Below are positions 402 through 57,416 of a DNA stretch of 64,000 bases, piece after piece. Every line of letters starts with the position of its first letter. Within the stretch, counting starts at the first letter, position 1. Location of the stretch: positions 49,331,195 through 49,395,194 of the forward strand of contig CM074513.1 of NCBI GenBank assembly GCA_037379345.1, given 5' to 3'. Both the position numbers and the translations under genes were made by a program. The notes beneath the pieces are model-generated. The model saw only the letters and a program-made list of their open reading frames with translations, did not search any database and had not been told where the DNA came from. This DNA comes from Perna viridis. Lineage: Eukaryota.

Positions 402-905
402 GATCGATGCTTGGTGGTATTATACTGGCGGACGAGATCGTCCAGGACGGGAAGGTAGGCCCGCGTGGAATTGGCCGAGAAGTATTTGAACATCTTTTCC
501 TTCTTGGTACGATTCCAGCGCTCCACCACGCTCGATTTTTCCTCGTTCTCGGTGGAGTAGATATCGACGTCGTGCTTCCGGAGCAGATCCTTCACCTCGC
601 GATTGTAAAATTCCGTACCCTTATCGGTCCATAGCTTCTCGGGCGTGCGATCCTGGAAGACGGTCCGGAAGGCATCTCGTATCGTAGCGCCTTTCTTATC
701 CTTCAGCGGTACCAACCAGCCGTACTTTGAAAAGACGTCGATGATGCTCAGGAGATACTTGAAGCCTCGGTTATCGCGGGAGAAGGCGCTCATATCCACG
801 AGATCGGCAGCCTCATCCACCCCACCTACCACCACGCGACGCTTCTGAAATTTGCGTCAGACTGGCCTATGCAGCTCTTCGGCTAGTTCGTCCGACCATC
901 GTACT
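402..905 (-). pseudogene. Retroviral-like (RVE, DDE) integrase, 3'-truncated
   Basis: Reads WSDELAEELHRPV*RKFQKRRV..ADLVDM..YLLSIIDVFSKY..LWTDKGTEF..KSSVVERWNRT..YNTTKHRS. One in-frame TGA; cut off at the mucin junction. Confidence 0.92.
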
Positions 906-1398
906 TTTTTTCCGCACTCCCAGCCCAAATCGTGCTTTGGTGCTGATGATGGGCTTGACGATGCTGCGGTCCATGCGCTCCCGGACGGTGGGATTGGGAA
1001 TGGCGTCCAGTGAGGCTAACATGGCCTTATCGCAGATGGAATTGCGAGCGGCAGTATCCTTATGCTTGGCATAGCATAGATCGTAACGATAGGCAGCCTG
1101 ATCCACTCAATTGATGGGCATTGACCAAGGTTTGGGAGTACCATCTGCATTCAAGCGCTTTTTGAGGTTGGTCCCGGGTCGGTGAAAATATGCCCAGGAA
1201 GATGCATCTCGACGGGCATCTAATTGGTCACCTTATTCATGAGTCCGGCGCCTGAAGCAGCCATGAACTGAGACTTCCAAGCCCCGCATACGGCGCATAG
1301 CCCACCTCTTCGCCGCCTCCCGTTGCTGGTGGTGGTCTGGTCTCATAGCGACTTTCTGTCTCGGTCGGCCGCTTGCACTTCAAGCAATACATTCCCAT
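906..1398 (-). pseudogene. Zn-ribbon plus parvovirus-VP1u-like phospholipase A2 domain (N-terminal part of the integrase ORF)
   Basis: ATG at 1398: MGMYCLKCKRPT..(fs)..NGR..CAVCG..KSQF..GAGLMNK..EMHLPGH..(fs)..PGTNLKKRL..DQAAYRYDLCY..DKAML. Matches the Ca-loop GPG and HDxxY-like PLA2 motifs (H replaced by Y here). Confidence 0.82.
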
Positions 1399-1411
1399 TT
1401 TATATAGATAA

Positions 1412-2149
1412 ATGGACGTTGAAGACCTTAACTACGATGAACCCACCGCGAGTCGTCGGCATAACCACTTTCTCCTCCCGCAGCGATCCATCCGAGGTCT
1501 GATCATCGGAAAGTCGGACTGCGGCAAGACGACGCTGCTGAATAACCTCCTCCTGCGCGATGGATGGCTCGACTACGATCGTCTCTACGTCTTCGGAAAA
1601 TCGCTCCACCAGCCCATCTACCAACTACTGCGGCAGGCGCTGGGAAAGGGGTTTTCGAAAGACGATATCCGCGACCTTCTCTCCATTAAGGATCGCAGCC
1701 CCACTCTTTGGTCGACGTAGTGCAGATGATGAAGCCGCCGACCAAGCCTAGCGGTATCGAACCTGCCGGATCCTCGAGAGCTCGATCCCACCCGCAAGAA
1801 CCTCAAGGTCTTCGACGACTTGATGCTGAGCAAGCAGAGCAAGTGCGAAGACTACTACGTGCGCGGTCGCAATAATAACGTGGACTGCTTCTACCTCTGC
1901 CAAAATTACTTCAAGCTCCCGCAGCAATCGATCCGGGAGAATGCCATCTTCATCTGCCTCTTTGAGCAGGATGCCAAAAATCGCGATCATATCCGCCGGG
2001 ACCATTGCGGCGATCTCACCCCGGCTCAATTCGATGCCCTATGCGATTACTGCTGGGTCAAGCCTCACGGATTTATGACCATCGATCTCACAAGCCCCAA
2101 GACGGTTGGGAAATATCGATGCAATCTAGACGATTTCTATCGAGTCTAA
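1412..2149 (+). pseudogene. A32/FtsK-like DNA packaging ATPase (frameshifted)
   Basis: Walker A IIGKSDCGKTT, Walker B VFDDLM, RGRNNNVDCFYLCQNYF, IRENA and PHGFMTID. Split over ORFs 1412-1720 and ~1730-2149. Confidence 0.9.
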
Positions 2150-2157
2150 GATAAAGA

Positions 2158-2705
2158 ATGGATCACTTGCAGGAATTTTTCCTGGAGAATCAACGGGACT
2201 TTGATCGGGAGAATGCCCCCAAGCCCCCACGACCACCCCCTGAATGTAAGCACCGGTGGGAGCGCATGCTTATTAATGGCGATATCCCGGGGTATTGCTG
2301 CAGTACATGTGGAGCTGAAAGGTACGCTCGCCGCATCGATGATCAGGATTTCGAAGGAAGGACCTATAATTCTCACTCCCGCCGCAAACCTAAGCAGCCG
2401 CCCGGACCCCCGTGCTGCATCAAGACCGTCCGCGGCCATCAGTGCACGTATCCCTCCATATCGGGCAGTGATAAGTGCAAGAGGCATTTGAAGCTTTTCC
2501 CCGAGGTATGCTATCGGTGCGGCGCTAAGATTGCCCGCGGTAAGTCTTGCACCGTATCCACGAGGGGACTATATACGTACCCAAATTTACCACCCTCTGG
2601 CCGGGCGTAAAAGTGAGGATTGTGGGAGAGTACGATCTCCGCAAAGCCCAGAGGAGGATCGGCCACGAGCCTTTCTGCTCCTCCAAATGCATGGAAAGTG
2701 CGTAG
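2158..2705 (+). pseudogene. Cys/His-rich multi-zinc-finger viral protein (frameshifted)
   Basis: CKHRW..CSTCG; C..KTVRGHQC..CKRH; CYRCG; after a frameshift near 2565 it ends in FCSSKCMESA* (TAG 2703-2705). Confidence 0.6.
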
Positions 2706-2787
2706 GATCCGCCATCACTTCGGGAATCCACGGTTTTTGCATCCCGCTGAGGCAGGAGGCAAAAAGCATGGGAGAATGGTTGATCCA

Positions 2788-2890
2788 ACGCTATGGGGCG
2801 TTCGGCTGAATGCTATGGGGCGTTCGGCTGAGCGCTATGGGGCGATGGGAGGCGATGGGTCGAACGCTATGGGGCGATGGGACGATGGTG
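2788..2890 (+). repeat. Short intergenic tandem repeat (CGCTATGGGGCG core, ~22-bp unit)
   Basis: Four GCTATGGGGCG copies plus GCGATGGG sub-repeats, directly upstream of the TAAATG at 2901. Confidence 0.8.
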
Positions 2891-2903
2891 AAGCTATAAA
2901 TAA

Positions 2904-3761
2904 ATGACGTTTATCAAGATCACCGATCCCAAGCAGCGTGAGGCGCTTGCTAGGGACTTACAGGAGACCAAGCGTAGCATCCAGGCTAGCGATATGCAGC
3001 GTCGCCTAGATAAGATCGGACTCAGCCGCGACCTCTCAAAGATATTCAAGCCCGTGGTCGAGACGCAAAAGGAGACTGCCTTCCAGACCACCAAAAAGAT
3101 CGAAGATATCCCACATGCTCTGCCCTCCCCGATGCCTACCCTTCCCCCTCCTACCTCTACCGCTGAGGACGACGACCCACTAGCTATCGAGCAAGCATTG
3201 AGTACCAGCCTCGGTCCGCGAGCGACGCACTATCTCCAGCTCAGTATGACTCCCAAGGCCGACCATACCTTTGGATTGCGAGTGGAAGACGGCTCCATCA
3301 TGATCGGAAGTCTGCCCGTCACCTTCGATGGAGACGATATCTTCGTCGATGGCGAGCGCTATAAGGGTACCCCCGGCCTGTGGGAGCTTATGGTCCTGAA
3401 GCACCCCAAAGATTTCGACGTGGAAGACCTGAATACCTATGGTGATATCCTTCGAGTGTCGAGTGTCATGTATCAAGGAAATCCCGTCCTATCGAGGACC
3501 CCAAAGGCCAACAGAAGCCGCAAATGGAAGGAGATCGTATCCTACCTTTATAAGCAAGATAAGTATTGCAGCGGGGTGCCGACCGTCTTCCTCCCCAAAT
3601 GCTTCGACCAGCTGCTGGATCGTCTCGATCTTTGCGCCGCCGCCTACCAGGCTGGAAATAATGGGGTGCGCAACGAAATTGTGGCCATCCTCGACGCCAT
3701 GAGGAAGTCCGGTCATATCAGCAGGGAGGAGTACGAGAAGCTGCATCGGGGGCTCCTCTAG
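2904..3761 (+). CDS. Conserved uncharacterised Maverick/adintovirus protein (285 aa, intact)
   Basis: FIKITDPKQRE..DLSKIFKPVVE..DHTFGL..IGS..YKGTPGLWEL..KWKEIV..LDRLDL..AGNNGVRNEIVAILD, a motif string typical of Maverick accessory ORFs. Confidence 0.75.
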   Translation: MTFIKITDPKQREALARDLQETKRSIQASDMQRRLDKIGLSRDLSKIFKPVVETQKETAFQTTKKIEDIPHALPSPMPTLPPPTSTAEDDDPLAIEQALSTSLGPRATHYLQLSMTPKADHTFGLRVEDGSIMIGSLPVTFDGDDIFVDGERYKGTPGLWELMVLKHPKDFDVEDLNTYGDILRVSSVMYQGNPVLSRTPKANRSRKWKEIVSYLYKQDKYCSGVPTVFLPKCFDQLLDRLDLCAAAYQAGNNGVRNEIVAILDAMRKSGHISREEYEKLHRGLL

Positions 3762-3772
3762 ATAAATTTACG

Positions 3773-4120
3773 ATGCCTTTAGTAGTGAATCACGGTTATC
3801 GTCGGAAGTATGCAGTCGGCGGACGAGGACTATTCGATGCCATCACCAGTCTGGCCGGACGCGTCCTTACCTCTTCCGCCGCGAAGACGCTGAGTAGCAA
3901 GGCATTGAGTGCCGCTTCCAATGCAGCCCTGAAAGGCGTGGAGAAAGGTGCGGCCAAGGCCGTTGACCACGTTGTCCATCGAGTGACTCGCAAGAAAAAT
4001 GCTCCCCAAGCACCATCCTCTAAGGTCAAGAGGACCTCACAGCAGCAGGTCCGTCTCAATAATCTCATCTCGGGTGGGGGCATCGCCACCATCCATGACT
4101 TCGTCCAGCGCTATAGATAA
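3773..4120 (+). CDS. Small basic putative virion core protein
   Basis: 115 aa, K/R/A-rich, with GGRGLFD and ISGGGI motifs; lies directly upstream of the major capsid gene. Confidence 0.6.
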   Translation: MPLVVNHGYRRKYAVGGRGLFDAITSLAGRVLTSSAAKTLSSKALSAASNAALKGVEKGAAKAVDHVVHRVTRKKNAPQAPSSKVKRTSQQQVRLNNLISGGGIATIHDFVQRYR

Positions 4121-4124
4121 ATAT

Positions 4125-5410
4125 ATGATGGTCGATATGCTCACTATCACCGAAGGATTGACTTTCGACGAAAGTCTCCAGGAATATCAGGTTCACGAAT
4201 ACGAACCTCAAGCCGGGGCGCAGCTGAATAATGCCGGTGCAGAGTCTCGACTCAAGATCTCTTCCTCCACCCCGCCGAAAGCTATCTCTTGATCGAAGGC
4301 CGACTTCAGAACGATGGCACCGCGTATGCCAACGGTGATCTGGTATCGCTCGTCCATAACGCCGCCATGTATCTATTTCGTAGCATCAGCTACCGACTTT
4401 CCGGGCAGCAGATCGAGCACCTCAACGGTCCCGGCGTCGCCACCACCATGCTGGGTATGCTGAAGTACCCCAACGACTTCTCCAAATCCCAAGGCCTCAA
4501 CCAGCTATGGTTCAAAGACTCCACGGCCGATGCCGAGGCAGAAAACGTCGGATTCGCAGCACGCCACGGATATATCATCACCAAGCCAGCCAATAAGGGA
4601 TCCTTTTCTTTCGCCATCCCGCTCAAGCACGTCTTTGGCTTTGCGGATTCAAGCACGAGCCCTCCCTGGTGCGCGATTCGGATGCAAATGCCATCCTCCG
4701 AGCTGCCGCCGTCAACGACGTGGCCAAGGTAATCCTGAGCAAGGTCTCCTGGTTCGTCCCCCACGTCATCCCTTCCGACGAAAAGAAGCTGCGGCTCTAT
4801 AATACCATCCAGAGCAAGACCAAGATCGATTGCGGATTCCGCATGAGGCAGTGCGACTCCATCGCCGTGCCCCAAACCTCGCAATTTCACTGGCGTCTGA
4901 CCGCTAAAAGCGGACGCGAGAAACCGCGATGGATCATCGTCGCCTTCCAGACCGATAGGGGTAATAACCAGCTGAATAATGCCGCCGTCTTCGACCACTG
5001 TCGACACGTTTTTCGCGTGGATATTTCGCAATCGACAGTGATTGCGAAATATCCACGCGACCCTCAATACGGAGCGATATCCCGCCGTGGATTCCAATGC
5101 CGGCTTCACATAGTGCAGGGTCGCCAGGGTCTATAAGGAGGCCGCCGAATTCCGCAAGAAGTTCTACAGCATGGAAAGTCTGCTGAGCAATGGTGGCATC
5201 AATCCCTCCGACTTCATCGATCTCTATCCCCTATTCGTCATCGACGTGAGCCATCAGTCTGAGCGGCTGAAAGAGTCGACGGTGGATATCCAGATCCGAG
5301 CCGACTTTGAGCGCAACGTCCCTGCCAATACCCAAGCCTTCGCCCTGGTCATCTGCCATCGAATTCTCCAATTCGAATCCGACGGTCAGAAGATGAGCGT
5401 CGTCGTCTGA
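4125..5410 (+). pseudogene. Double-jelly-roll major capsid protein (hexon-like), multiply frameshifted
   Basis: DMLTITE..FDESLQEYQVHEYEP..; IEGRL..NAAMYLFRSISYRLSGQQIE..PGVATTMLGMLKY..; IPLKHVFGFA; ISWFVPHV-like VSWFVPHVIPS; EKPRWIIVAFQT; PLFVIDVSHQSE..VDIQI. Confidence 0.9.
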
Positions 5411-5424
5411 GGAGGGATAGATAA

Positions 5425-6194
5425 ATGGACGCTTCACTTTTGCGGAAAATCGCCACCAATACCGAACCCAAGCATGGGTTCTCCTTCATCGTCTCTGGGA
5501 ACGACAGCCAGATCTTGACCCGCTTCAATCCACCCCTCCAATTGCGCGAGGAGAAATCTTACGAGATGGCCCTAGTGAATCTGGAGACCTACTACTCCAT
5601 CCCCAATATTCATGCAGGTAATAATTCCTTCCGCTACTCTCCCGATGACGGTGCTAACTGGTTTTCCGTCGAGCTGAGCACCAGCTTTTACGCATCGACG
5701 ATATCAACGATGAGATCCAGCGGCAACTGTGGCTGCATAGGCACAAGGCTAAGGTCCTTCTCGATGCCAATCGTGCGACGCTGAGAGCAACCCTCACCCT
5801 CGCCAGAAATTATCGAGTGGATTTCGACGTGCCCAATAGCATCAGTACGGTGCTTTGATTCGAGCGCCGGACGTATACCTACGACCGAAGCACCAACGGC
5901 TACGCGGAGGGTGAGAATATCGTCAATATCATCAGCATCAATAGCATCCTGGTGAATAGTGATATCATCCACAGAAGCTACGTCAACGGCACGCAGCAGT
6001 CCACCATCTATAGCTTCTTTCCCGCTGTCGATCCGGGTATGAAGATCATCCAAACCCCCAAGAATCTCGTCTACTTACCCGTGACCCTGAGGACCATCGA
6101 CCGCATGCAGACGTATCTGACCGATCAAGACGGCCGCCCCATCGATCTACGAGGAGAGAATCTCACCATCCGCTTCCATATGCGTGAGGTATAA
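5425..6194 (+). pseudogene. Minor capsid protein (penton, single jelly roll)
   Basis: FNPPLQL..YEMALVNLETYYSIPNI..NNSFRYSPD..; VNIISINSILVNSDII..SYVNG..IYSFFP..PGMKII..NLVYLPV..LTDQDGRPIDLRGENLTIRFH. One frameshift and one TGA. Confidence 0.88.
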
Positions 6195-6198
6195 ATAA

Positions 6199-6809
6199 AT
6201 GGATTATCAAGAGTACGGTCTCAACTTGACGAAAGGTCAGGCGGAGAAGATCAAGCGTGCGGCAAAGAAGGGTTGTCCCGTGAGCGTCCGATTGCTGCAT
6301 GCAAACCTATCCGGTGAGCATAAGATGCTCTTCACTCACCGCCAGATCCAGCGCATCACCAAGCTCTTACAGAGTGGGAAGGGTGGTATGGTCTTGGAGA
6401 TGAGTCCGAAGCAGGTGAGGCATAATGTGCAGAAAGAAGGTGGATTCCTCCCCATGCTAGCAGGTCTTGCCTCTGCTGCGCTACCCATGCTGGCCAAAAC
6501 CATGCTACCTGCTTTGGGCTTGGGTGCATTTAGCGGCTACCTGCTTTGGGCGTGGGTGCATTGAGCGGTTTGGGTAGTGCAGCCATCCAGAAGGCTGTGG
6601 GATCCGGATTATATCTCAAGAAGGGTGGGAAAGTATGCTGCGTGAAACCTCGTGGTCGTGGTCTGTATTTGAGTCCAGGCACTTTGCCCAATACATACGG
6701 TGATGGGCTATACTTGAAGAGCGGACGTCAGATCTACGATGGAAGTGGACTGATCATTGGTCCCAATAGCCCCTTCAAAAGCATCCCCATCTTGGGCATG
6801 CTCCTCTAG
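6199..6809 (+). pseudogene. Putative core/membrane-lytic virion protein with repeated GxGL motifs, broken by a 32-bp tandem duplication
   Basis: LNLTKGQ..GGFLPMLAGL..GSGLYL..GRGLYL..GDGLYL..GSGL..SPFKSIPILGMLL. GCTACCTGCTTTGGGC.TGGGTGCATT.AGCG is duplicated at 6504 and 6536. Confidence 0.7.
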
Positions 6810-6819
6810 ATATAGATAA

Positions 6820-7341
6820 ATGGACGACGTAGACTTGGGGAAGCAATCCTACCGAGAAGCTAGAATCGAGTCGATCGAGAAAGAGCTTGAATCCGAAAAG
6901 CATAAGTATGCTCGACTGTCGAGGAACTATAAACGAGTGGAAAAAGCGGTGTCTTTTGCTCTGGGTACCTGTGCAGTACTCAACGTAGTTTGCACCACTG
7001 GCACACTCAGCACCGCGGCAACGGGGATAGGCGCCGTGGCATGCATTCCGTTGAGCTCACCAGCCGTCGTGAATTCCATCACGATGGCGGGGTTGGCGGT
7101 ACTAGCCAAGCGCATCCGCCAAAAGCGTAAAAAGCATTAAGATACCGTGCGCATCGTCAGATCCTACCAATCCAAGATCGAAGATGCAGTGAGCAAAGGC
7201 CTGGAGGAGGATGATATCGATAAATCTGAATTTGCAGGGGTTGTGAAATGTCTTAGCTTCTACTACGACGAAAAGCAGCAGCTGCGAAAACCTTCCACGG
7301 CTACCACTTTTAGTGAAGACCTTACTGCGCATGCGCCATAG
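6820..7341 (+). pseudogene. Coiled-coil / two-hydrophobic-helix viral protein (one internal stop)
   Basis: ORFs 6820-7140 and 7147-7341 are in the same frame, separated by TAA (KKH*DTVRI..SKIEDAVSKGLEEDDIDKSEF). Central hydrophobic GIGAVACIPL segment. Confidence 0.65.
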
Positions 7342-7511
7342 GGAGGATTCTTCCAACGCGCGCCTTGCTCGGCTACCCCTCGTTCCCCACGCTTATTCCA
7401 GAATCCTTCAGATCAAAGTTCCAAGTGACCAACAAAAAAATTTCCGTATCCAGTAATTTGGATTGGGAAATTTCGAACCCCTTACCCATAGCCCTCGATT
7501 ATTTTTTTTTA

Positions 7512-7877
7512 TTACTTCCTCACCAGATCATAGGAGAGGTACTGCTGCTGAGATTTCTTGCTCACCTTGAATCCAGTGCTCCGAACGAAAGCTCCTTGCA
7601 AAGGACCCTTCTCTTTGTTGAGCAAAGGGCAGGCCCATATCCTGGTGGTCTGTCCGTCTCGATCCTTCAGGGTGAGGATTCTACTTTTGCCGAATTTTCC
7701 ATCCACTTCTACCACCTCCAAGATCTTATAGATCACACCGGTGGGTAAGTCCTTCCATTTGAATGCTTCCTGATTCTGATCCTGCAGCTCCTCCTGGAAG
7801 GCGTCTTCGCTGATGAAGTCATCCCCATCTGTGGGAATGTCAACGAATCCATTGTGTACGAGACATAATTCTTGTAT
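7512..7877 (-). CDS. Small beta-rich viral protein, possibly OB-fold/SSB-like; start codon apparently mutated (TAA-ATA for TAA-ATG)
   Basis: Open frame of 121 codons: (I/M)QELCLVHNGF..FKWKDLPTGVIYKILEVVEVDGKFGKSRILTL..RIWAC..YDLVRK*. Confidence 0.55.
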   Translation of the reverse strand: MQELCLVHNGFVDIPTDGDDFISEDAFQEELQDQNQEAFKWKDLPTGVIYKILEVVEVDGKFGKSRILTLKDRDGQTTRIWACPLLNKEKGPLQGAFVRSTGFKVSKKSQQQYLSYDLVRK

Positions 7878-7879
7878 TT

Positions 7880-7994
7880 ACCCTATGCTCAATAGGAATG
7901 CCGTCCGTTTGCATTTGGCCGTCCTGGTCGGGGGTCCTATGCAGGATTTCCCCTTGAAAATGGCGTGCGGCAGAATCGGCCTTTTGAAACTACT
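7880..7994 (-). repeat. Probable right terminal (TIR) region of the Maverick
   Basis: Minus strand begins AGTAGTTTCAAAAGG at 7994. Polinton termini canonically start with (AGT)n or (AG)n. The partner TIR is not in the window. Confidence 0.6.
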
Positions 7995-8802
7995 GCGAAC
8001 GTCCGGCACACCCGCCCTTGGATCCGCGCCTGGCCTGAACCCTCGGTATGTCCAAGATAATGGAATATCTGAAAAAATATTTAGAATCTTTTAAAGGAAC
8101 AAAATTAATATGTATCCGTCTGATTTGTAAAGAGGGCACGGAATAAGCTTTATTTAAGACACCTTTATACGAACTATTGTACACAAAACGAGAGATTCTA
8201 TTTTTTGCACTTTTTCAATACCAAAAACTAAGATTACTAAGTAATAAGGCCGTATGATTTGCCGAGTCTATTAAAACAAGGACGCACTCGCTTTCAAACT
8301 TTTAGTTTTTGCGATGCTTTCCTACAAATCATCAAAATTTAAATGATAATCAATCACGATGCCTAGAAGTTCGTCACAAGTAAGTGCTGAGTTCTGAATA
8401 TATATATAAAGTTCTTTTACCAACTGCCAAAATTTGCCAGGATTTTGTTAATTTATAAGAATTCACTGGCATCTTATTACAATTAAACTAGTTTTTAAGA
8501 ATACATGTATTTGAAACAAGTTTATAAAAATCAAGACTTCAAAAAAGATAAAGTGTTGTGATCTGCATTATTATACAACATACCATTTTTTACAAATATA
8601 AAAAAAATGTCATTAATGAATACATAAAATAACAAGGTACCCAATATCAAGCCTCGGGAACACCTTTGTCAGCCCAACTGTTCAGGACGCTATTGACTTA
8701 GATCTGTTGTTTTCGAATATTAGATAAATAAGATCGATGGAGTGAAACTGAATTATTTGCAGAATTTACAATTGGCTATTATATCCAAAAGAATGCCTTA
8801 AA

Positions 8803-16164: not shown

Positions 16165-19100
16165 TATTAGTAAATTGTTTTTTAGCACAATGTTTGAATT
16201 TGTCGCGCATGCTTTGGGTTTTTTCGCTAGGCCTCCATACGATCCCGCAGTCTCGTTTTGACGAGCCGCGCTGCTAGTGCAAAAATATGCTAATGGCGAC
16301 ACACTGTTTTTGTCAGCTTTGAAAGTAATATGACGAATGGAGCCGATACTCCGGGTAAACTCAAAGACCTGATAGAAGGGTTAAGACGAGGAAAGGGCAG
16401 AAGACCCGATTTAGACGACGGTGCAAATGCGGCTGACGAATCAGCCGAGCAAAATGATGTCGACCTACAACCCGAAAGCCCCAAATCAGACGGTGCACAC
16501 GATGCTGTTGAAGAACTGCAGGATCTAGAAAAACAGTTGAGGGATCTCAGACTTGAAAGGAAGAAAGCACATTTACGCCTGCAAATTAAACAAGAAAAAG
16601 ACAGTTTGCGGACTTTGCAAGCCTCGACGATGAATTCCGGAATGCATTCGCTCAAGACAGGACCAACGATGTCATCTTCACAGTTTCCTTCAAATACAGG
16701 TGAGCCTATTAGCTTATTAGTTACTTCCAAAGAACAAAAAGTGCTTCAGATTTTGTCATTCATCTAGCCAGAGCCCGTTGAACAATTTGAAACGTTTACT
16801 TTGGGCGGTGAAGTTGAGTTTCGCATAGGCAAAAAGAAATCTTTGGATAAGGTTACAATAGAGGAGTGGGGCTACGCGAACATTAAAATCATGCAGGAAT
16901 TGGTGAAACAAATGCGGCTTAACGGATATTAATGGTTCCCTCAACTATACCGCCGATGTCTATCGCTTAGCCGCCCGGAATGTATAGTATTCAGTTTTGC
17001 TATACGACAAAGAATATCGTCAAAAGCAGGCCGATGAGTTATTCGAATGGGGAACATATAGACAAGATTTGCGTGACTTTCAGTTAGTGTCTATAGCATT
17101 CGTAGAAGCTTTTAAAGTCGCCATTAAGGGTAGAAATCAGAAACAGATTACTGATGATCGGTGGAAAGGTCCGTTTCTGTCCGATGGACGCGAGATCTGT
17201 CGAAGCTTCAATTACAATTCATGTTATCGTGTAGATTGCAAAATGATGCATAATTGTGCAGTTTGTTTTTCTAGTGCTCACTCTGCGTTAAATGGTCACA
17301 ATCAACCAATGACGAGACCAAAAAACCAGGAAGTGCCTAAAAATCGGGACTAGTTGTGGAGCCGAAGGCGACATCCGCGATTAACACCCTGCATTTCGAG
17401 GCTTGGTGTCGCCTATTACCTATGGAAACAGAGGACCGAGAATTCATTTTAGATGGAGTAAAAAATGGCTTTCGTTTATGTACAAAATTTGGCCTGCATT
17501 ATCCAACCAATCGTGAAAATTATGCATCAACATTTAAAGTACGCGAAAAAGTAGAAATTCAGCTACGAAATAAGCTTGCTTTAGGAAATTATGTGATTAC
17601 TAAAAAGATTTCAACAATTGTGAGCTGACTAGGGGCTGTCCCAAAACCAAATGGTGAAATACGTTTAAGTCATGACGTTGTTCAGCCTGTAAAAATTTCC
17701 CTCAATTCTTATACAAGTGATACAAATTGTTCATATATGGATATGCGACACGCTTCAAAACTTATTAAACCAAATAGTTTTCTTGTAAAAGTTGACCTTG
17801 AAAGTGCGTATAGATCCGCTAAATATCACAAGTTAGATCATGAAAACACCGGCTTAAAATGGACCTTCACAGGTGATGATGTTCCTACTTATATGTATGA
17901 TTCTAAACTTCCATTTGGCCATTCGCGAAGCCCAAAATTTTTTCAAATGTTGAGTGGGTCAGTTTGTAAAATTATGAAATGTGTATACAATATAACATGT
18001 ATTGCTTATCTAGACGATTTTTTAATTATTTCAGAAACTATGTATGATTGTTATATGGATTTGCTTTTATTGGTTCGCACATTGAGACAATTAGGTTTTA
18101 ACATAAACTGTTCGAAGGTAGAAGGTCCAGCACAGCGAATAACTTTTTAGGCATAATAATGGATACCCGTGATTTGACACTTACCATGCCAGAGCAGAAG
18201 CAATCTGAATTTTTTAGCCTCCTGTTATCCTTTGAAAAACGCAAACGTGCAAGTGTTAAACAACTTCAGTCACTTTGCGGCAAGTTCTTGTCAAACGGTG
18301 AAAGGTGGTAGAACGTTCTTCAGACGTTTAATTGACGCTATTTCTAATGTAGAAAACCGCAGTAACAAAGTGTTATTATCTGCCGATTTTCTTGCTGACA
18401 TTTCTTGGTGGATTAAATTTATGAAGGTTTTCAGTGGCACAGTGAAATATATGGACTCGAACAAAATCATTTCGTTACAAACTGACGCGTCTTCATTAGG
18501 AGACGCTGGCTATTACAATGGAGATCTCTTTTATGTTAATTGGTCTATTGACTTGCCAGTTATTCAAAATGAACATATCAATATTAAAGAAACTGCTGCT
18601 GTCATCTTAACTGTACTTCGTTGGGGACATTTATGGACAAATAAAACTGTTATAAAGTTTACGGACAATATGACGACCAAATGTATTTTGAATAAGGGGT
18701 CGACAAAGAACAAGTGGCTGATGAGTTTACTGAGAACTTTGTTTTGGTTGTCCACTATGTATAATTTTGACATTCAGGCAAAATTTTTGAGAGGGCGTTA
18801 CAACGTTATTGCCGATGCTGCCTCGCGTTTTCACGAAGAATGTCAACTTTCGAGACTTTGTTACATTAACTAATTACAGTTACATTCCATTTACGGTACA
18901 TGAACTATTGAGACATGTTTCGTTTGCCTTTTATCTTTTTAGATGGTGCAAATATGATAGCGGACTTGGAGATAGCCGTTGGTAGATTGAAAGGAAAGAG
19001 GTGGGCTTAATCAACAGCTGGAACGTACGCCACGCACCTGCAGACGTATCTTCAGTTTTGCGACGAGTACAAACTGCAGCCGGTATCATGTGACCAGAAG

Positions 19101-19975
19101 ACTATTGAGATTTATATCGCATATTTAGTGGACAAGAAACATTTCGCATATAGTTCTATTCGCTCCTACTTGAACATTATTTCTGTTTTACATAAGATGC
19201 ACGATATACAGGATCCTATTTCTAACTCTTGGAATATACAGCACTTACTAACGGGTGTGAAAAGAGAACTAGGAACAAGTCAATCCTGCAAAGCGCCAGT
19301 TACGCCGGAACTGTTATTGAATTAAGGAACATTCTTGATTAGTCAAACCACAACAATATTGTTTTTTGGGCAGGTTGTTTGACAGGATTCTTTGGCTTTT
19401 TAAGACCAAATAATTTTCTTGTAAAGGGAACGTTTAATCCCGACCTTAATCTTCGCAGGGTTGATGTATTACCATGTAGCTGGGGCATGCTTTTACGTTT
19501 AAAAGTAGTTAAAACGCTTCAATATCGTTCAAAACCAATAGAAGTGGTATTGCCTTGTTTAAGTAATCACCCGTTATGTCCAGCTACAGCCATGTCTCAT
19601 GTATTAGCTTTAGCCGGAGATTCTCTGGACCCCCTTTTTCTCTTGTCAGATAAGTCATGTTTAACATACTGTATTTTTAAATGCCTTCCGGTTTGCTTTG
19701 CAAAATTTAAATGTAAATACCGCAAGCTATGGTGGTCATTCCTTTCGCCGTGGAGCCGCTACCTGGGGCTCAAAAGCAGGTCTCTCTGACAACGAGATTA
19801 AGTTACTAGGATATTGTTCAAGTGATTGCTTCACAAGATATATAGATAGTGATGTTATTCAACGTTTAAAAGCAGGTTCTTCCTTCTGTACCCTCTTACC
19901 CCGTTAAAATTCTTCTTCGGGTTTGGGACTTTCGAAAAAGATATTTGACCTGGGAAATAGAACTTATAAATTGTT
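16165..19975 (+). mobile_element. DIRS/Ngaro-type tyrosine-recombinase retrotransposon, near full-length, decayed, nested in a LINE
   Basis: Gag-like ORF with CCCH finger (CRSFNYNSCYRVDCKMMHNC); RT (KVDLESAYR, LPFG, YLDD); RNase H (TDAS, HINIKE, TDN, NVIADAASR); YR (FFGFLR, CPA, HSFRRGAAT, TRY). Boundaries approximate. Confidence 0.9.
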
Positions 19976-49735: not shown

Positions 49736-51394
49736 CTACTAAATAAAATACAATTAATTCTTCATATTCATTAACGTTAACTGGTTTTTAATTATTTTTT
49801 TTTTGTAAATTATTTGTAATTTCATTGTCTTGTGTAATAATGTCAAATGGATTGTACACTTTGAATAGATTTTAAATTTTTATTTGATTTTCTTTTTGTT
49901 CAATGGATTATGTAATTTGAATAGATGTCTCACGGATTAGACAGGTGTTTGAAACTTCCCATTTTACTGGTGATTTCAATAGCCCATGTATTGATTTTTA
50001 ACCGTTTTATTGTGCTTTATGAATACATTAGAGGTGTAAGGACGTGTTGCGCAATGTTTACTTCTCGGACATTAATTTTTATCGTTGTTTTAGTTATTTT
50101 TGTTTAATTATGTTGAATATTTTTTTGTATTTAGTTTGAATAATTAATATTACTATTTTGACTAACGTCTAAAGATATACTGACAATTGTAAGGTTAACA
50201 ATTGATATTTACGTTTGGAATGTTAATAGCTTTTGAATGGTGTATTGCCTTTCATATTTATTAAAATTTGATTTTTATAGTCGACTTATTCATCACCGAT
50301 GACAGACACACGCAACCTTTTCATCGATTTTATCCGTGTTACGAGGCTCTATCGGGTAAACAGATTTCCTTTTTCATACTTTCAATGTTTACATGTCGAG
50401 TGTACTAGATTTGACCCGTTATGGGGGTAAACCTACTACAGGATTTTTTTCTCTCTCCATATTTTCATTCGTGCTTTGTTTCCTTCGCCCCCTTTTTTGT
50501 ATAAGTATTGTATGATGTTTTTTTTTTATAAGGAGATCGAACTTTTAAATGTTACACAACAAGATTTATTTACAATTCATAATCATTGTTCCATTCGTCG
50601 GGGTGTCGTCTGTTTTTCGAGACCGGATCCTGCTCCATGGTCTGTTCCATAACGTGTTGCTCTTCCCCCTTTAAATGACACTTCACGATCCGATCTTCTT
50701 ATGATTCCGCTTTACTATGAGTCTTCTTTCCGTCTGAGTATCGTTGGCGTCAAGACTATTTTTCCACCCTATTTAACCTTCTCTTCCTTTTGTTCCTCGG
50801 ATTACATGACTTATGGTCTTTGGACTAGGTTTTCATTGTATATCCCATATAGGTCCTGATATTTTTGATGAACTTTCCTCTCATCATATTAGGTCCAGGT
50901 ATCGTAGTTCAATATGATTCATCTAGTTGAACTTTTGCAACTTTCTTGATTTATTAAAGTCGTTGATTCTTATGCAAAGATTCAAGGTGCTCCGCTCTGG
51001 TTTCCACTAATATTAGCTATTCTGACGTTGTACGTTTTACGTTCTTAATACAGCTACACGATCTTTGTTCTGAAATCCTCTTCATTAATAGGTGTTACAT
51101 TTGTTTTCTTGGCTTTTTTTTCTTTCCTCCAGCTGGTCTACCACGAGGTCTTCTGGGGGCCTCACTTTCTTTTGTCAGTTCATTCCTTGGTTTGCATTGT
51201 ACACTTTCTTTCGTCCATTGCACGTGTATTGCATCACGTCTGGTGACCTCTTCTAAATGAATCCCTCGAAAAGGAACTATATTGTAAATCTTCATTGCTC
51301 CGGGTGCGTCCATTTCCTTTGCGAGTCGGCCAAGAAGTGACCACATACTTTTTATCTCTATTTATACTTTTCCTCATCCAAAAACACATCCTGA

Positions 51395-52888
51395 ATTTCC
51401 CATGGGAAAATGTTTCTTCACAATCTCAAGTTGTCGGGAATGCCCTGTTTCATGTCGATCAATAAATATCCGTGAGGTTGGGCAGTGGCATACTCGTACG
51501 ATTTCATTAAGTAGTTTGTCTTTTGGGGGAACATTTGTAGGGCCATGGTCATGGCCTGTGATACTTCTCTGGGATTTTTAAACAGAACCAGGTAATGGGC
51601 ATTCAGACTGATGGTTCTGTGATACTTGTTTTTGTTGAACAGATTCTGGACCAACAACATGACACTTATATTTTTGTGGTGAGAATATTTCGTGAAGAGA
51701 TGTGAGATAGATTCAGTGACCGAATCCATCATATCGTCAAGAACAAGCAAGTGTCTTTCTCTGGGATCCAATATGTCAAGGTCGGGGAGTCCTTGTACAA
51801 AGTCGACATCCTCCATGGTTCCATAAATCGTCTGGTACACGTCTTACCACCACGTTATTCGATTGGGTCTAGGCATGATCGTGTGTTTCACGTTTTGTAC
51901 GAGTAATCAAGGGAACCAAGGTTACAGCGGTAATCAAAAGAATGTAATCCAGGAACAAAGACCAGACATGGAAAACAGACATACACATCAAAGAACATAA
52001 AGTAACTAAAATCATACATACAAAGTAACAAAAGCAAATGAGCAACTCGGACTCCACTAAAAACTGGGAGCATGGACCAGGTGCACCGGTAGGGTAAGTG
52101 TCCTCTGCTTTTCTAGAAACACCCGCCGAGTTGCTCATAAAAAGTCAAGTCCGGGGTAGACAAACGAGGAAAGAAAAACCATGACCCGTTTAATAAATCA
52201 ATTTTCATGGTGCTGATGGATACACCATAACGATCCACGACTTTATGATGATGACCATAAAACTTCTGTAGTAATGACTTCAATCTTGTAGCAACATAAC
52301 CCTGTTCCAGAAGCCTATTTGTTAGAGTTCTAGCGCGATACATAACGTCTGCGTTGTTTCAGCAAGCTCTGACATAACGCATGAGTTGTGATATGAACAC
52401 TCCATACGCAGGTGCTGAAGGGATGTTGCCACAGATGAAAGGAAAGTAATACACATCGTTTTTCCACTTCCGGTGGGTCCTGCTATGACGTTGGTAAAGG
52501 GACGAGCCCATGGCATGAAATGTTCGTCCAAGTATCTTTTGGGTACGTCGAAAGCAAGGGGATCGTCTGTCGGATGTATGAAAAAGTTTTCGTTAGCTGG
52601 GTGCTTGGGTGATCTTTCTTGAGTTTCATCTTTGATCGATTGGCATAGCCTTTTCATCAAAGTATCTTGGTTTTCTTTCCTCAAAGAATACTGGTGAAGT
52701 CCGGTCATCAAAGTATCATAGTCCGATACGTTGGTTTGACTTGGTCTAATCTGTGGGTATGGTCTGTACCTTGTTGTATCTGAATATTTACGGTGAAATA
52801 ATCTCATATATCTGTTTAAACTATCCATTCTACTCAAAGACTTTGAACACGTGGAACAGGGGAACATGTTGACTCTACGACAGTCCAT
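51395..52888 (-). pseudogene. C2H2 zinc finger plus Maverick packaging ATPase, interrupted by a Penelope fragment (left copy)
   Basis: FPCSTCSKSLSRMDSLNRYMRLFH; PFTNVIAGPTGSGKT | insertion | VQNVKH..YQTIY..LVLDDMM..LFTKYSHHKNISV..QNLF..RTISLNAHYLVLFKNPR..PHGYLLIDMK..LRL. Confidence 0.9.
51901..52447 (-). mobile_element. Penelope-like 3' fragment inside the ATPase (left arm)
   Basis: Homologous to 54471-55018. Confidence 0.85.
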
Positions 52889-52960
52889 TTACAACTGTCA
52901 ACTTTCAAGGGTAAACTCGTTTATATATGGTTTCTGGAACATTGTTTGGTTTACCTCAAG

Positions 52961-53122
52961 GTGTGTGTTTGTACGTGTACGTGTGTGTGTGTGTGTGTAC
53001 TTGTGCGCGTGTCTGTTTGTACGTATGTGTTTGTACATGTGTGTGTTTGTACGTGTGCGTGTTTGTACGCATGTTTGTATGTGTGTGTGTGTTTGTACGT
53101 GTTTGTATGTACGTGTGTGTGT
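52961..53122 (+). repeat. Compound (TG)n microsatellite (mirrored as (CA)n at 57226-57343)
   Basis: Direct inspection. Confidence 0.9.
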
Positions 53123-53149
53123 GATTGAGGTCAGATACACCCCAATCCT

Positions 53150-54362
53150 AACATAACCATAACCCTGGACAAACATCAACATCTGACCCCAACCTTATAT
53201 ATAACCTCAAGCCTAACAAACACTTACCATAGGCTTAACCTTTGTCATAGACTTGATCCTATATCTTACGGTTGAGTCTTACAACTTTCTTGATATTAGA
53301 CCTTATCTGCACTCTAACCCTAAACCTAACCCTAAGCCAACCCCTAGTGATCTTAACTCTATACATAAAACTAGGCGTAACCCTATACTTAACCATACAC
53401 CCTAAGCCAACCCCCTAGTGATTTTAACTCTATACATAACACTAGGCGTAACCCTATACTTAACCATACACTTAACCTTAACCCTAACCCTAATCCGAAC
53501 TTAACCAAAACCTTAGACAAACATCAACATCTGACCCTTACCTTAAACATAACCCCAAGCCTAATCCAACTCTTTACCATAAAATTAACTTTTGCCATAG
53601 ACATGGGCCTATATCTAAAGGTAGAGTCTAACAACTTTCTTGACACTAGACCATATCTGAAACTCTAACCCTAACCCTTGCTCTAATCTTATCATGACAA
53701 TTTCTTTCACCTTAATGCAAACGCTTTCACTATGTTCCGAACACTACCGCTAAACATAACCCTGAACCGAAACAAGTACATGTATCTTACCCTAACCACA
53801 TAACTAACTCTAAATCTAACTTTCACTAAAGTCATCATCATGGACCATCAAGACCAATACATGACATAAGACCTAACTTTAGATCTAACTTCAACCTAGA
53901 CCTAACCTACCCCTAGACAAATACTAAGATCAGGTCTCAAACATATACTTAATCACAACCGTATACCAAAACTTGGCTAAACTACAGATTTAATTGTGAT
54001 CAAATGAAGACCTTAACCTAGATCTATCTGAAACCCTAACCCTAACCTTAGCTCTGATTTTGTCATGACAGTTTTATTTTCACCTTAAGGCTTTAGCTCT
54101 ATTCCGAACACTAACCCCTAACATAACCCCGAAGCGAAACAAGTACCCGTAACTTACCATAATCACATAACTAAGTATAGATCTAACTAGATCTAAGACC
54201 TCACCCTAGACCATCAAGACCAAAACTTGAAAGTCTTAAATCTTGATCGGACTTTAACAGAGACCTAACCTAAACCTATCTCTAAACCTAATCCTAACTC
54301 TAGACAACCCATCCCCCTTAGACAAGTACTGACCTGTTCAAATAACCGTAACCCTGACTCTA
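53150..54362 (-). repeat. Degenerate telomere-like (CCCTAA/CCTAA-rich) DNA with internal duplications
   Basis: CTAACCCTAAACCTAACCCTAAG and TAACCCTAACCCTAAT etc.; ~70-bp tandem duplication at 53332-53471. Confidence 0.75.
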
Positions 54363-54422
54363 GTTGTTAGACTCAGAGTGAGAATAACAGAAAATGAATC
54401 AGAAAAATACGGAAAAAAACTA

Positions 54423-55018
54423 TTGACCAAACTTTACGACAAACGTGATGACTTTTCATTCAGAATTGTCAACTTTCCTTTCATCTGTGGCAACATCCCT
54501 TCGGCTCCTGCGTATGGAGTGTTCATATCACAACTCATACGTTATGCCAGAGCTTGCCGAAACTACGCATACTTTTTGTATCGCGCTAGAACTCTAACAA
54601 ATAGGCTTCTGGAACAAGGTTATGTTGCTACAAGATTGAAGTCATCACTACAGATGTTTTATGGTCGTTATCATGAACTCGTGGATCGTTATGGTGTATC
54701 CATCAGCACCATGAAAACTGATTTATTCAACGGGTCATAGTTTTCCTTCCCTCGTTTATCTACCCCGGCCTTGACTTTTTATGAGCAACTCGGCGGGTGT
54801 TTCTAGAAAAGCAGAGGACGCTTACCCTACCGGTGCACCTGGTCCATGATCCCAGTTTTTAGTGGAGTCCGAGTTGCTCATTTGCTTTTGTTACTTTGTA
54901 TGTATGATTTTAGTTACTTTATGTTCTTTGATGTGTATGTCTATTTTCCATGTCTGGTCTTTGTCCCTGGATTGCGTTCTTTTGATTACCGCTATAACCT
55001 TGGTTCCCTTGATTACTC
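54423..55018 (+). mobile_element. Penelope-like retroelement 3' fragment (RT C-terminus + 3' UTR), possibly Naiad-type
   Basis: TKLYDKRDDFSFRIVNFPFICGNIPSAPAYGVFISQLIRYARAC..LLEQGY..FYGRY. The ORF ends after the RT thumb with no C-terminal GIY-YIG. Clade assignment is inference. Confidence 0.82.
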
Positions 55019-55125
55019 TTACAGAACACTAGAGACTTGGAATTAGAGATTAGGTAATAGAAAAACAACCACAATGAAGATTTTGGGTGAGAGTTAGGGT
55101 CAAGAGTTATGGTCAGGGTTAGGAT

Positions 55126-56527
55126 TAGTGTTTGAACAATAGAAAAACAAAACAGAACAAGGCTTAAGGTTAGGTTAAGAGTCAAAGTAAGAGGTAGTGT
55201 TAAAACGACAGAAAAACATACAGAACAAGGATAAGGTTAGGGTATGAGTCAGAGTAAGAGGTAGTGTTAAAACGACAGAAAAACATACAGAACAAGGATA
55301 AGGTTAGGGTAGGAGTCAGAGTAAGAGGTAGTGTTAAAACGACAGAAAAAACATACAGAACAAGGATAAGGTTAGGGTAGGAGTCAAAGTAAGAGGTAGT
55401 GTTAAAACGACAGAAAAACATACAGAACAAGGATAAGGTTAGGGTAGGAGTCAAAGTAAGCGGTAGTGTTAAAACGACAGAAAAACATACAGAACAAGGA
55501 TAAGGTTAGGGTAGGAGTCAAAGTAAGAGGTAGTGTTAAAACGACAGAAAAACATACAGAACAAGGATAAGGTTAGGGTAGGAGTCAAAGTAAGAGGTAG
55601 TGTTAAAACGACAGAAAAACATACAGAACAAGGATAAGGTTAGGGTAGGAGTCAAAGTAAGAGGTAGTGTTAAAACGACAGAAAAACATACAGAACAAGG
55701 ATAAGGTTAGGGTAGGAGTCAAAGTAAGAGGTAGTGTTAAAACGACAGAAAAACATACAGAACAAGGATAAGGTTAGGGTAGGAGTCAAAGTAAGAGGTA
55801 GTGTTAAAACGACAGAAAAACATACAGAACAAGGATAAGGTTAGAGTAGGAGTCAAAGTAAGAGGTAGTGTTAAAACGACAGAAAAACATACAGAACAAG
55901 GCTTAAGGTTAGAGTAGGAGTCAAAGTAAGAGGTAGTGTTAAAACGACAGAAAAACATACAGAACAAGGATAAGGTTAGGGTAGGAGTCAAAGTAAGAGG
56001 TAGTGTTAAAACGACAGAAAAACATACAGAACAAGGATAAGGTTAGGGTAGGAGTCAAAGTAAGAGGTAGTGTTAAAACGACAGAAAAACATACAGAACA
56101 AGGCTTAAGGTTAGAGTAGGAGTCAAAGTAAGAGGTAGTGTTAAAACGACAGAAAAACATACAGAACAAGGATAAGGTTAGGGTAGGAGTCAAAGTAGGA
56201 GGTAGTGTTAAAACGACAGAAAAACATACAGAACAAGGATAAGGTTAGGGTAGGAGTCAAAGTAAGAGGTAGTGTTAAAACGACAGAAAAACATACAGAA
56301 CAAGGATAAGGTTAGGGTAGGAGTCAAAGTAAGAGGTAGTGTTAAAACGACAGAAAAACATACAGAACAAGGATAAGGTTAGGGTAGGAGTCAAAGTAAG
56401 AGGTAGTGTTAAAACGACAGAAAAACATACAGAACAAGGATAAGGTTAGAGTAGGAGTCAAAGTAAGAGGTAGTGTTAAAACGACAGAAAAACATACAGA
56501 ACAAGGATAAGGTTAGGGTAGGAGTCA
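55126..56527 (+). repeat. 67-bp satellite, ~21 highly homogeneous copies, most carrying one TTAGGG
   Basis: Unit GTAGTGTTAAAACGACAGAAAAACATACAGAACAAGGATAAGGTTAGGGTAGGAGTCAAAGTAAGAG starts at 55194, 55261, 55328 and so on. Confidence 0.95.
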
Positions 56528-57210
56528 GGGATAGGGTTAGGATAAGCCTTGGGCTAAGAGTTAACATAATAGAAAACGGGCAGCACATGATACGGATTAG
56601 ACCTAAAGAACACATTATACATAGTCACATGACTTAGGGTTAGGGTTAAGGAGGTGTGAGGGTTTACAAAGAAAAGACAAGTCTAAAGAAAGTTAGGGTT
56701 TGCTATAGAAAAAGTGTCAGAACAAAAGTAAGGATTAGACCTAAAACAAACAAACTAAAAAAATGTCAGTGTGAGTTATATACTATGTTGGGGTATGGTT
56801 ATGGTAAAGTTGGTGTTGAGTGAACACAGAAAAGACCGGACTTAAGAGATGTAGGTTAAACGCTAGGATAAATGTTATAGTGAGGGTTATAGGTCACGGG
56901 AAAGGGTAAGATTTAGTGTTTGATCTAGGGTTAGGTATTCGTCTTGGATGCAGTTAGATCTAGGGTAAGGTCTTCATCTTGATTACATTTAAATCTATAG
57001 TTTGGTCTAAGGTTAGATTCTGGGTTATGATTAAGTGTAGGGTTTGGAACAGGTCTTGTTACTTGTCTAGGGGGGTGTCTAGAGTTAGGGTCAAGTCTAT
57101 GGCAAAGGTTAAGCCTATGGTTAAGTGTTTGGTTAGGTTTGAGGTTATATTTAAGGTTGGGGTCAGATGTTGATGTTTGTCCAGGTTTATGGTTAAGTTA
57201 GAATTAGGGT
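56528..57210 (+). repeat. Degenerate telomere-like (TTAGGG/GGTTA-rich) DNA
   Basis: TTAGGGTTAGGGTTAAGG at 56634-56651, many GGTTAG; 56951-57075 is inversely similar to ~53910-54030. Confidence 0.75.
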
Positions 57211-57273
57211 GTATCTGACCTCAATCACACACACACGTACAAACACGTATATACAAACACACACAAGTACATA

Positions 57274-57311
<38 letters not shown>

Positions 57312-57416
57312 TACGTACAAACACGCACACGTACAAACACACACCTTGAGATAAATCAAACAATGTTCTAGAAACCATATATAAATGAGATTAACCTTAA
57401 AAGTTGACAGTTGTAA

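Follow-up and report, generated by a model that had tools for sequence, protein, structure and literature searches.

A TA[TG]A–TAAA start signal at the genes of a Maverick element in Perna viridis, and its possible use by a helper-virus polymerase

Late-type start signals and the Maverick element of Perna viridis

Vaccinia virus uses the initiator TAAAT and the yeast linear plasmids use TAAAN; in both, TAAAT or TAAA(n)T abuts the ATG, a T stands at position -3, and the genes lie compactly head to head (PMC6211774, PMC12722222). African swine fever virus (ASFV) possesses a late initiator TA(+1)TA, with a median leader of 9 nt, and a poly-T terminator (PMC7163114). The late motif of mimivirus ends in RTA[TG]A and is also used by Zamilon (PMC11464507), and mavirus shares the late promoter motif TCTA with its helper (PMC8547959). 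A comparable signal is described here for a Maverick/Polinton element, or adintovirus, of group 2 (Alpha type), which is present as a decayed copy at positions 405 to about 8033 of a stretch of 64,000 nucleotides from Perna viridis (assembly GCA_037379345.1, contig CM074513.1, positions 49,331,195 to 49,395,194); this whole stretch is called the window.

The element is visible in the GC profile as an island of 53% GC in surrounding DNA of about 33% GC. Its left part lies upstream of the window, and its right end (about 8033) was set from loose contig ends found there. A probe of 1.45 kb gave at least 50 matches in the genome, at 79–97% identity. Pfam matches in the window and in sister copies comprised the double jelly-roll capsid, rve integrase, A32 ATPase, PLA2 and pPolB. 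A cysteine protease without Pfam match was recognised in sister copies by 52% identity to a relative and by its H/D/C motifs, and the Maverick/Polinton hallmarks (pPolB, rve integrase, A32 ATPase, cysteine protease and double jelly-roll capsid) are all present. The features of the Alpha adintovirus or group-2 virion module were found as a PLA2 domain and a PF21738 capsid (sister copy); PLA2X is a hallmark of this module (PMC8502044). Judged by its genes, the element is a group-2 (Alpha) Maverick/adintovirus, and described members of this group share with it pPolB, rve, protease, A32, double and single jelly-roll capsids, PLA2X and terminal inverted repeats (PMC8502044; bioRxiv 10.64898/2026.06.19.733378). 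The closest named homolog of the capsid is a protein of Mytilus trossulus (81% identity). According to the 2026 preprint just cited, virions of animal Mavericks have not been observed.

The sharing of promoters with a helper is already known for protist virophages. For animal Mavericks, the word "promoter" occurs 0 times in the main texts of PMC8502044, PMC10748475, PMC11131425 and bioRxiv 10.64898/2026.06.19.733378, and no description of a gene-start grammar, or of a contrast between Alpha and Beta types, was present in the full-text literature searched, which did not extend to subscription journals and bioRxiv supplements. The start grammar reported below is real, selected and lineage-specific.

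The start signal in the window, in the genome and in relatives

A first-pass annotation of the window had claimed that every gene of the element begins at a TAAAT(G) island of poxvirus-late type. Five exact TAAATG (1409, 2901, 5422, 6196 and 6817) do set the ATGs at 1412, 2904, 5425, 6199 and 6820, and the variants GATAAAGAATG (2158), GATAAATTTACGATG (3773), GATAAATATATG (4125) and TATAAAATG (minus strand, 1398) are present as described; a sixth TAAATG (6532, minus strand) is not at a gene start. Two starts had to be corrected. At the minus-strand start proposed for 7877 the TAAAT is present (T at 7880), but there is no ATG, which follows 14 nt further on at 7866; this start is the least certain one, since an in-frame upstream ATG without motif exists. 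For the capsid gene the signal proposed at 4125 is present, but the conserved ATG is that at 4128, and the ATG at 4125 is altered in several copies. The signal was thus found at all ten starts of the window, and the protease gene and a gene beginning with MDKFG, both lost here, follow TAGATAAATG in sister copies, so that the generality originally proposed is borne out.

TAAA occurred within -14 to +1 of 10/10 starts and of 3 among 253 other ATGs (Fisher p 8e-16), one of these three being the ATG at 7866 itself. ATAAATG was present five times in the element as against 0.76 in shuffles, and none of 500 shuffles reached five. For TAAATG the count was 6 versus 2.7 in dinucleotide shuffles; since 5.8% of 500 shuffles reached six (p 0.058), this count alone was rejected as proof.

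At the six tandem junctions the gap between stop codon and ATG is just 4–14 nt. The frequent overlap of the signal with the upstream stop codon, as had been described, did not hold, since the TAA of the core is the stop at only one junction in six, and stop-codon overlap was rejected as a cause of the signal. On the plus strand, AATAAA is absent downstream of the plus-strand gene block and present only inside two start signals, and ATTAAA does not occur on this strand. An explanation of the motif by stop codon, host Kozak context and AATAAA, which the first-pass annotation had named as the refuting one, fails in view of T at -3 in 13/20 starts of the two families treated next, stop overlap at 1/6 junctions, the mere 13 nt between head-to-head genes and the missing downstream AATAAA.

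A second, diverged family of the element exists in the same genome, with capsids 68% identical and N-terminal peptides about 45–70% identical to those of the first. It carries CCTATATAAATG, CTATAGATAAATG or TATAAATAAATG at 8/8 starts examined, in flanks which are GC-rich and unrelated. Taken together, the two families showed TAAA at 20/20, TAAAT at 18/20, TAAATG at 13/20 and TA[TG]A at 17/20 starts, where shuffles gave about 1, 0.6 and 3 for the last three, respectively; T stood at -3 in 7/12 and 6/8 starts. The island persists in a background of 53–55% GC, with flanks of 43–46% AT. Diversity across copies was computed from 23 of 29 stretches which gave alignments, one pair giving short ones only. 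It amounted to 0.014 per site in the core (31 sites) and 0.050 in the spacers (71 sites), compared with 0.143 at four-fold sites (0.168 when A/T ones alone are counted). Second codon positions gave 0.047, and the signal matches them in conservation; of 20,000 resamplings of four-fold sites, none was as low as the signal. The start signal is under selection, because the diversity of its core lies far under that of four-fold sites.

Other polymerase loci in the genome are those of Beta-type Mavericks, which served as a control within the same genome. Their homology-defined starts (n = 29; starts of the polymerase and of a duplicate integrase set were unreliable and were left out) showed TAAA three times, TAAAT and T at -3 not once, and purine at -3 in 90%, with upstream DNA of 66–67% AT. 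For TAAA, the difference from the 20/20 starts of the Alpha-type families was significant (p 6e-11). Because Beta-type Mavericks in the same genome are devoid of the signal, it is a property of the viral lineage and not of the host. Host histone genes were rejected as a Kozak control, since they offered too few distinct start contexts, namely three, of which two came from H3 (T/G-containing -3).

Relatives were taken from metagenomes as the best 80 of 518 loci, together with one viral contig (capsid 51–61% identical). After removal of near-duplicates they yielded 136 non-redundant, homology-defined starts from nine genes with reliable N-terminal alignment; the rows for ORF6820, ORFa and ORFb were left out due to unreliable starts. 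The regions before these starts end in AT islands, for example TATAAAAATG or ATAAATG. TAAA was present at 116/136 starts, compared with about 95–103 in shuffles which fixed the last 3–4 bases, and TA[TG]A at 5–12 nt upstream in 79/136, compared with 50–56 in the same type of shuffles. A pattern resembling vaccinia intermediate promoters, AAANAA-N11-13-TAAA, was found 27 times in 136 starts (8–16 in shuffles). Exact TAAAT and TAAATG were not enriched (28 versus 33.7 and 15 versus 12.3, n = 136). Because these exact forms are unenriched in relatives while TAAA and TA[TG]A exceed the shuffles, the conserved feature is TA[TG]A followed by TAAA(n) against the ATG, and exact TAAATG is confined to some lineages. 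Conservation in relatives, which had been suggested as a check, was therefore found in the form TATA...TAAA(n)ATG. The label "poxvirus-late-like" is justified insofar as TAAAT is present at 18/20 own-genome starts, but it is too narrow, since distant relatives show no enrichment of exact TAAAT, and asfarviruses and mimiviruses would be matched by TA[TG]A as well.

The N-termini of the relatives' proteins align from residue 1, and Met1 is invariant in 61 homologs of DUF8207. The ATG adjacent to the signal is therefore the real start, and a TATA box acting 30 nt upstream of a start site therefore cannot serve that gene.

Possible polymerases and helpers

We regard the chances as about even that the island is a compact late-type promoter or initiator which gives leaderless or nearly leaderless mRNAs, with a nucleocytoplasmic large DNA virus (NCLDV), present in co-infection, as the likely source of the RNA polymerase reading it, the Maverick lineage being provirophage-like in an animal. 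Each TA[TG]A-TAAA(T) island would act as a late-type promoter/initiator for its own gene, and a multi-subunit viral polymerase would start in TATA or TAAAT. T at -3 is a disfavoured base for initiation by scanning; slippage of the polymerase may add A or AU heads as a leader, replacing this unfavourable T. Facing T runs would end transcription, and the polymerase would be supplied by a co-infecting cytoplasmic large DNA virus, as is the case for mavirus.

An RNA polymerase had been noted as missing, and indeed no gene for it was found among the open reading frames (ORFs) of the copies and relatives examined, the copies being annotated in part; the conserved genes of the relatives contained no candidate for a polymerase or a transcription factor. 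Facing runs of A and T (at least six) are present at the sole convergent junction of the element in 12 of 14 copies which span it. T runs were not found between tandem genes, nor were they seen at the few convergent junctions of the relatives.

Mavirus and the endogenous mavirus-like elements (EMALEs), as well as the Sputnik/Zamilon provirophages, resemble the element in being integrating, in their module of rve, pPolB and capsid, in the lack of an RNA polymerase and in one motif before nearly all genes (PMC8547959, PMC11464507). The element differs from them by its animal host, by the Maverick group-2 capsid (PF21738) in place of a lavidavirus one, by a motif which touches the ATG, and in that no helper is known. 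With a PF21738 capsid, and neither a lavidavirus-type capsid nor a protist host, it does not belong to the Lavidaviridae.

The poxvirus initiator TAAAT is found at 18/20 own-genome starts, and the yeast linear plasmids are, like the element, linear with a polymerase of pPolB type; unlike the element, vaccinia and the yeast plasmids encode their own RNA polymerase (PMC6211774, PMC12722222). Poxvirus post-replicative promoters have an A/T-rich core 6–11 nt upstream of the initiator; in the GC-rich families this core comprises only 4–8 nt, and distant relatives do not as a rule carry exact TAAAT. In respect of ASFV, a start at TA[TG]A, 5–12 nt ahead of the ATG, would leave a leader close to the median of 9 nt, and T runs of at least seven are present downstream of convergent genes (PMC7163114); unlike in ASFV, TAGA is as common as TATA in the element, and no asfarvirus partner was identified. 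The full mimivirus late consensus, W8 T[AC]T N4 W5 RTA[TG]A, was rejected (0/20 own-genome starts with at most one mismatch; 15/136 in relatives versus 6.8), and so was TCTA, the motif of Cafeteria roenbergensis virus (CroV) and mavirus (6/20 own-genome starts; 9/136 in relatives versus 9.8). As to the family of the helper, late signals of poxvirus, asfarvirus and mimivirus type each fit in part, and none fits completely.

Viruses which branch divergently within the same group-2 capsid clade are known from entomopoxvirus occlusion bodies (AHEV_PLV1/CBEV_PLV1; PMC11296320), and helper dependence is therefore plausible for the group. These viruses were found with an animal poxvirus and share with the element a PF21738-like capsid, phospholipase, mu-core, protease and A32 genes; AHEV_PLV1 differs by having no integrase (PMC11296320). 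The words "promoter", "motif", "TAAAT" and "transcription" occur 0 times in the main text of that paper.

Several points speak against a helper-read initiator. The transcription start in the island, the leader made by A-slippage, the termination at T runs and the helper polymerase are inferred, and neither a start site nor a poly(A) head was observed. Searches of the host genome for markers of a helper (VLTF3, NCLDV capsid and poxvirus D13), which had no positive control, gave a negative result. None of the 20 starts of the GC-rich families fits the bipartite patterns of vaccinia intermediate or mimivirus promoters, the upstream AT-rich core being nearly absent. Besides the unenriched TAAAT and TAAATG, the relatives show purine at -3 in 88% of starts, and their last 12 nt are 86% AT, which means that AT richness makes up much of the signal. 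The Beta-type control offers fewer starts than the test set, and these are placed with less certainty. The own-genome families and the relatives do not represent independent origins, because all motif-bearing elements share ancestry. Finally, hallmark genes of coral polintoviruses are reported to be expressed in about 40–60% of elements, with groups not separated and no helper described (PMC11131425), and insect cells infected with baculovirus were the source of Spodoptera adintoviruses (PMC8502044).

Only tentatively can the reading by a helper be extended to the whole group. Group-2 (Alpha) Mavericks of marine and other invertebrates would then be endogenous animal virophages which rely for all their genes on late initiators of poxvirus- or asfarvirus-like helpers and are silent until infection; the helper would be an unknown cytoplasmic large DNA virus of mussels, and the Beta type would represent nuclear viruses using polymerase II. 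Whether animal Maverick genes are expressed autonomously or with a helper is made testable by a signal which separates Alpha from Beta in one genome. If the reading by a helper is true, the provirophage model would reach from protists to animals, including farmed bivalves, and the start signal could be a sequence handle for seeking the helper among the large DNA viruses of molluscs.

An unlikely alternative is a non-canonical initiator of host RNA polymerase II, which would be used in the nucleus by way of a factor of the element or the host, the element being autonomous and its mRNAs leaderless. The octamers TATAAATA and TATATAAA are similar to a TATA box (going by the generally known consensus of the box), and AGATAA is present eight times on the plus strand and 0 times on the minus strand. 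Like a nuclear resident, the element integrates and has a shifted GC content; the expression of coral polintoviruses mentioned above would also fit. A TATA box, however, acts from about 24–30 nt ahead of the start site (PMC7163114 gives 24 bp), which would place the start site inside the conserved N-termini. Moreover, Pfam matches to TBP were obtained at two loci of the genome only, neither of them among the Maverick loci found. For the protein encoded at 2904 (predicted structure with pLDDT 76.5 and pTM 0.44), fold searches matched DUF8207 only and revealed no TBP-like fold; Foldseek gave no match in the PDB at E 0.001, and the ESM Atlas no usable match for this protein or that encoded at 2158. 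A TBP-like gene was not found in the element, where a very divergent factor is possible among three small ORFs without assignment. The relatives have no unlabelled conserved gene resembling a transcription factor, and the missing downstream AATAAA argues likewise against polymerase II.

Still less likely is a signal for translation, i.e., stop-restart or an A-rich enhancer of initiation on polycistronic or read-through RNAs, without a promoter. It would agree with the 4–14 nt between stop and ATG at the six tandem junctions and with the A run of the relatives, which is graded up to the ATG and accompanied by the purine at -3. Four sequencing runs, taken by a guess to be RNA, gave contigs with thin coverage of the element. 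Several junctions are spanned by these contigs, as would be expected from read-through or from carried-over DNA, although a contig does not prove a single transcript; none of the loose contig ends listed from these runs was a poly(A) end at a signal, 25 further loose ends standing outside that list. The starts without an upstream stop (1412, 1398 and 2904) carry the same signal, however, and it serves both directions within 13 nt. The T at -3, disfavoured for scanning and found at 0/29 Beta starts, does not suit a translation signal, nor does the enrichment of TA[TG]A at 5–12 nt upstream when the last 3–4 bases are fixed.

Improbable, finally, is a relic of an ancestral polymerase, self-encoded or of a helper, or a mere composite of AT-biased spacer, stop codon, Kozak context and poly(A) signal: shuffles of the AT-rich relatives do reach 95–103 of the 116 TAAA, and AATAAA lies within the signal at 5/20 own-genome and 46/136 relatives' starts, but the diversity of the core is one tenth of that of four-fold sites, the island is kept in GC-rich surroundings, the TAGATAA variants contain no AATAAA, and the TAA of the core is rarely the stop.

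Gene layout and neighbouring features

The leftmost genes in the window are those of the PLA2X and rve integrase region (405–1398, minus strand), which is broken here and starts after TCTATATAAAATG; an rve match was obtained in the window, and PLA2 and rve matches in a sister copy. A homopolymer run at the PLA2X/integrase junction (905–911) differs in length between copies and is present also in the second family. Some copies have the two domains in a single ORF; in most relatives each domain has an ORF of its own. A bidirectional spacer of 13 nt, TTTATATAGATAA (1399–1411), lies between the start codons of PLA2X/integrase (minus) and ATPase (plus), and 12 of its 13 positions are invariant in the aligned copies. 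In seven relatives the corresponding head-to-head spacer is AT-rich with 22–45 nt; it comprises 108 nt in one, and two pairs overlap by annotation.

The plus-strand block begins with the A32-like packaging ATPase (1412–2149; start at TAGATAAATG), which is frameshifted here and was assigned by P-loop matches and by Pox_A32 in a sister copy. It is followed by the spacer GATAAAGA with a cysteine-rich ORF (2150–2610, plus strand, ATG at 2158), for which no usable family match was found. Short direct repeats (GCTATGGGGCG) are located at 2790–2890, ahead of the signal at 2904, in the one spacer of the element that is long; this stretch varies between copies. The next unit consists of the spacer CTATAAATAA and the DUF8207 (PF26634) gene (2894–3761, plus strand, ATG at 2904), whose start is supported by the invariant Met1 in the aligned homologs. 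A small basic ORF (ATG at 3773) with its spacer ATAAATTTACG occupies 3762–4120 on the plus strand, as judged from the sequence and the copies.

The major capsid gene (PF21738; conserved ATG at 4128), with the signal ATAGATAAATATATG, extends over 4113–5410 on the plus strand and is frameshifted here. The spacer ATAGATAA precedes a probable minor capsid gene (5417–6194, plus strand, ATG at 5425), broken here and proposed from position and homologs, as no Pfam match was obtained. A pX/mu-like core gene (6190–6809, plus strand, ATG at 6199), also broken, follows with the signal TATAAATAAATG; a homolog matched Adeno_PX below the cut-off. The last member of the block is a membrane-like ORF, shortened here (6810–7140, plus strand, ATG at 6820), with the spacer ATATAGATAA, known from sequence and copies.

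Two T runs are candidate poly-T terminators at the convergent junction: a T7 run (7434–7440), downstream of the convergent ORF on the minus strand, and a T9 run (7502–7510), downstream of the plus-strand gene block, which overlaps an AATAAA on the minus strand. The convergent ORF (7513–7866, minus strand) is broken here and starts in the right terminal inverted repeat (7855–7995). This repeat is 94% identical to the left end over 145 nt and holds TAAATACAAGAATT-ATG (minus strand, 7880–7864). Maverick/Polinton elements produce a target-site duplication of 6 bp.

The left terminal repeat lies upstream of the window, in a stretch where a polymerase gene carrying an endonuclease VII domain also has its beginning. 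About 100 nt inside the left end (upstream stretch L011:6880-6930) a second signal, AAATAAATAAAAGG-ATG, leads into a peptide similar to the beginning of the ORF at 2158; the polymerase-side ORF may in fact start at this ATG. A tandem repeat of 132 bp, rich in threonine codons and with a mucin-like frame, covers positions 1 to about 400 of the window and the upstream stretch L011:9257-10000. It splits the copy in the window between the polymerase and integrase regions; sister copies contain at its place the remaining polymerase, the protease and another gene.

Among the Beta-type Mavericks, two (L173:7257-7919 and L179:4322-5203) encode PC4 co-activator domains in tandem, one of them fused to a CARD domain, and also a C2H2 zinc-finger protein. 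A third kind of element is represented by a single AT-rich Polinton-like element with an A32 ATPase (L164:1510-9371; G000:C15, about 5.015-5.023 Mb); TAAAAATG or a similar sequence stands directly before its starts, and the two genes of one head-to-head pair have 15 nt in common.

Elsewhere in the window, a decayed reverse transcriptase/RNase H element, probably a DIRS-type retrotransposon, was found at 16330–19789. A long palindromic structure, with arms about 92–100% complementary, extends over 49830–60573 and contains at its centre a tandem array of 67 bp (55031–56673).

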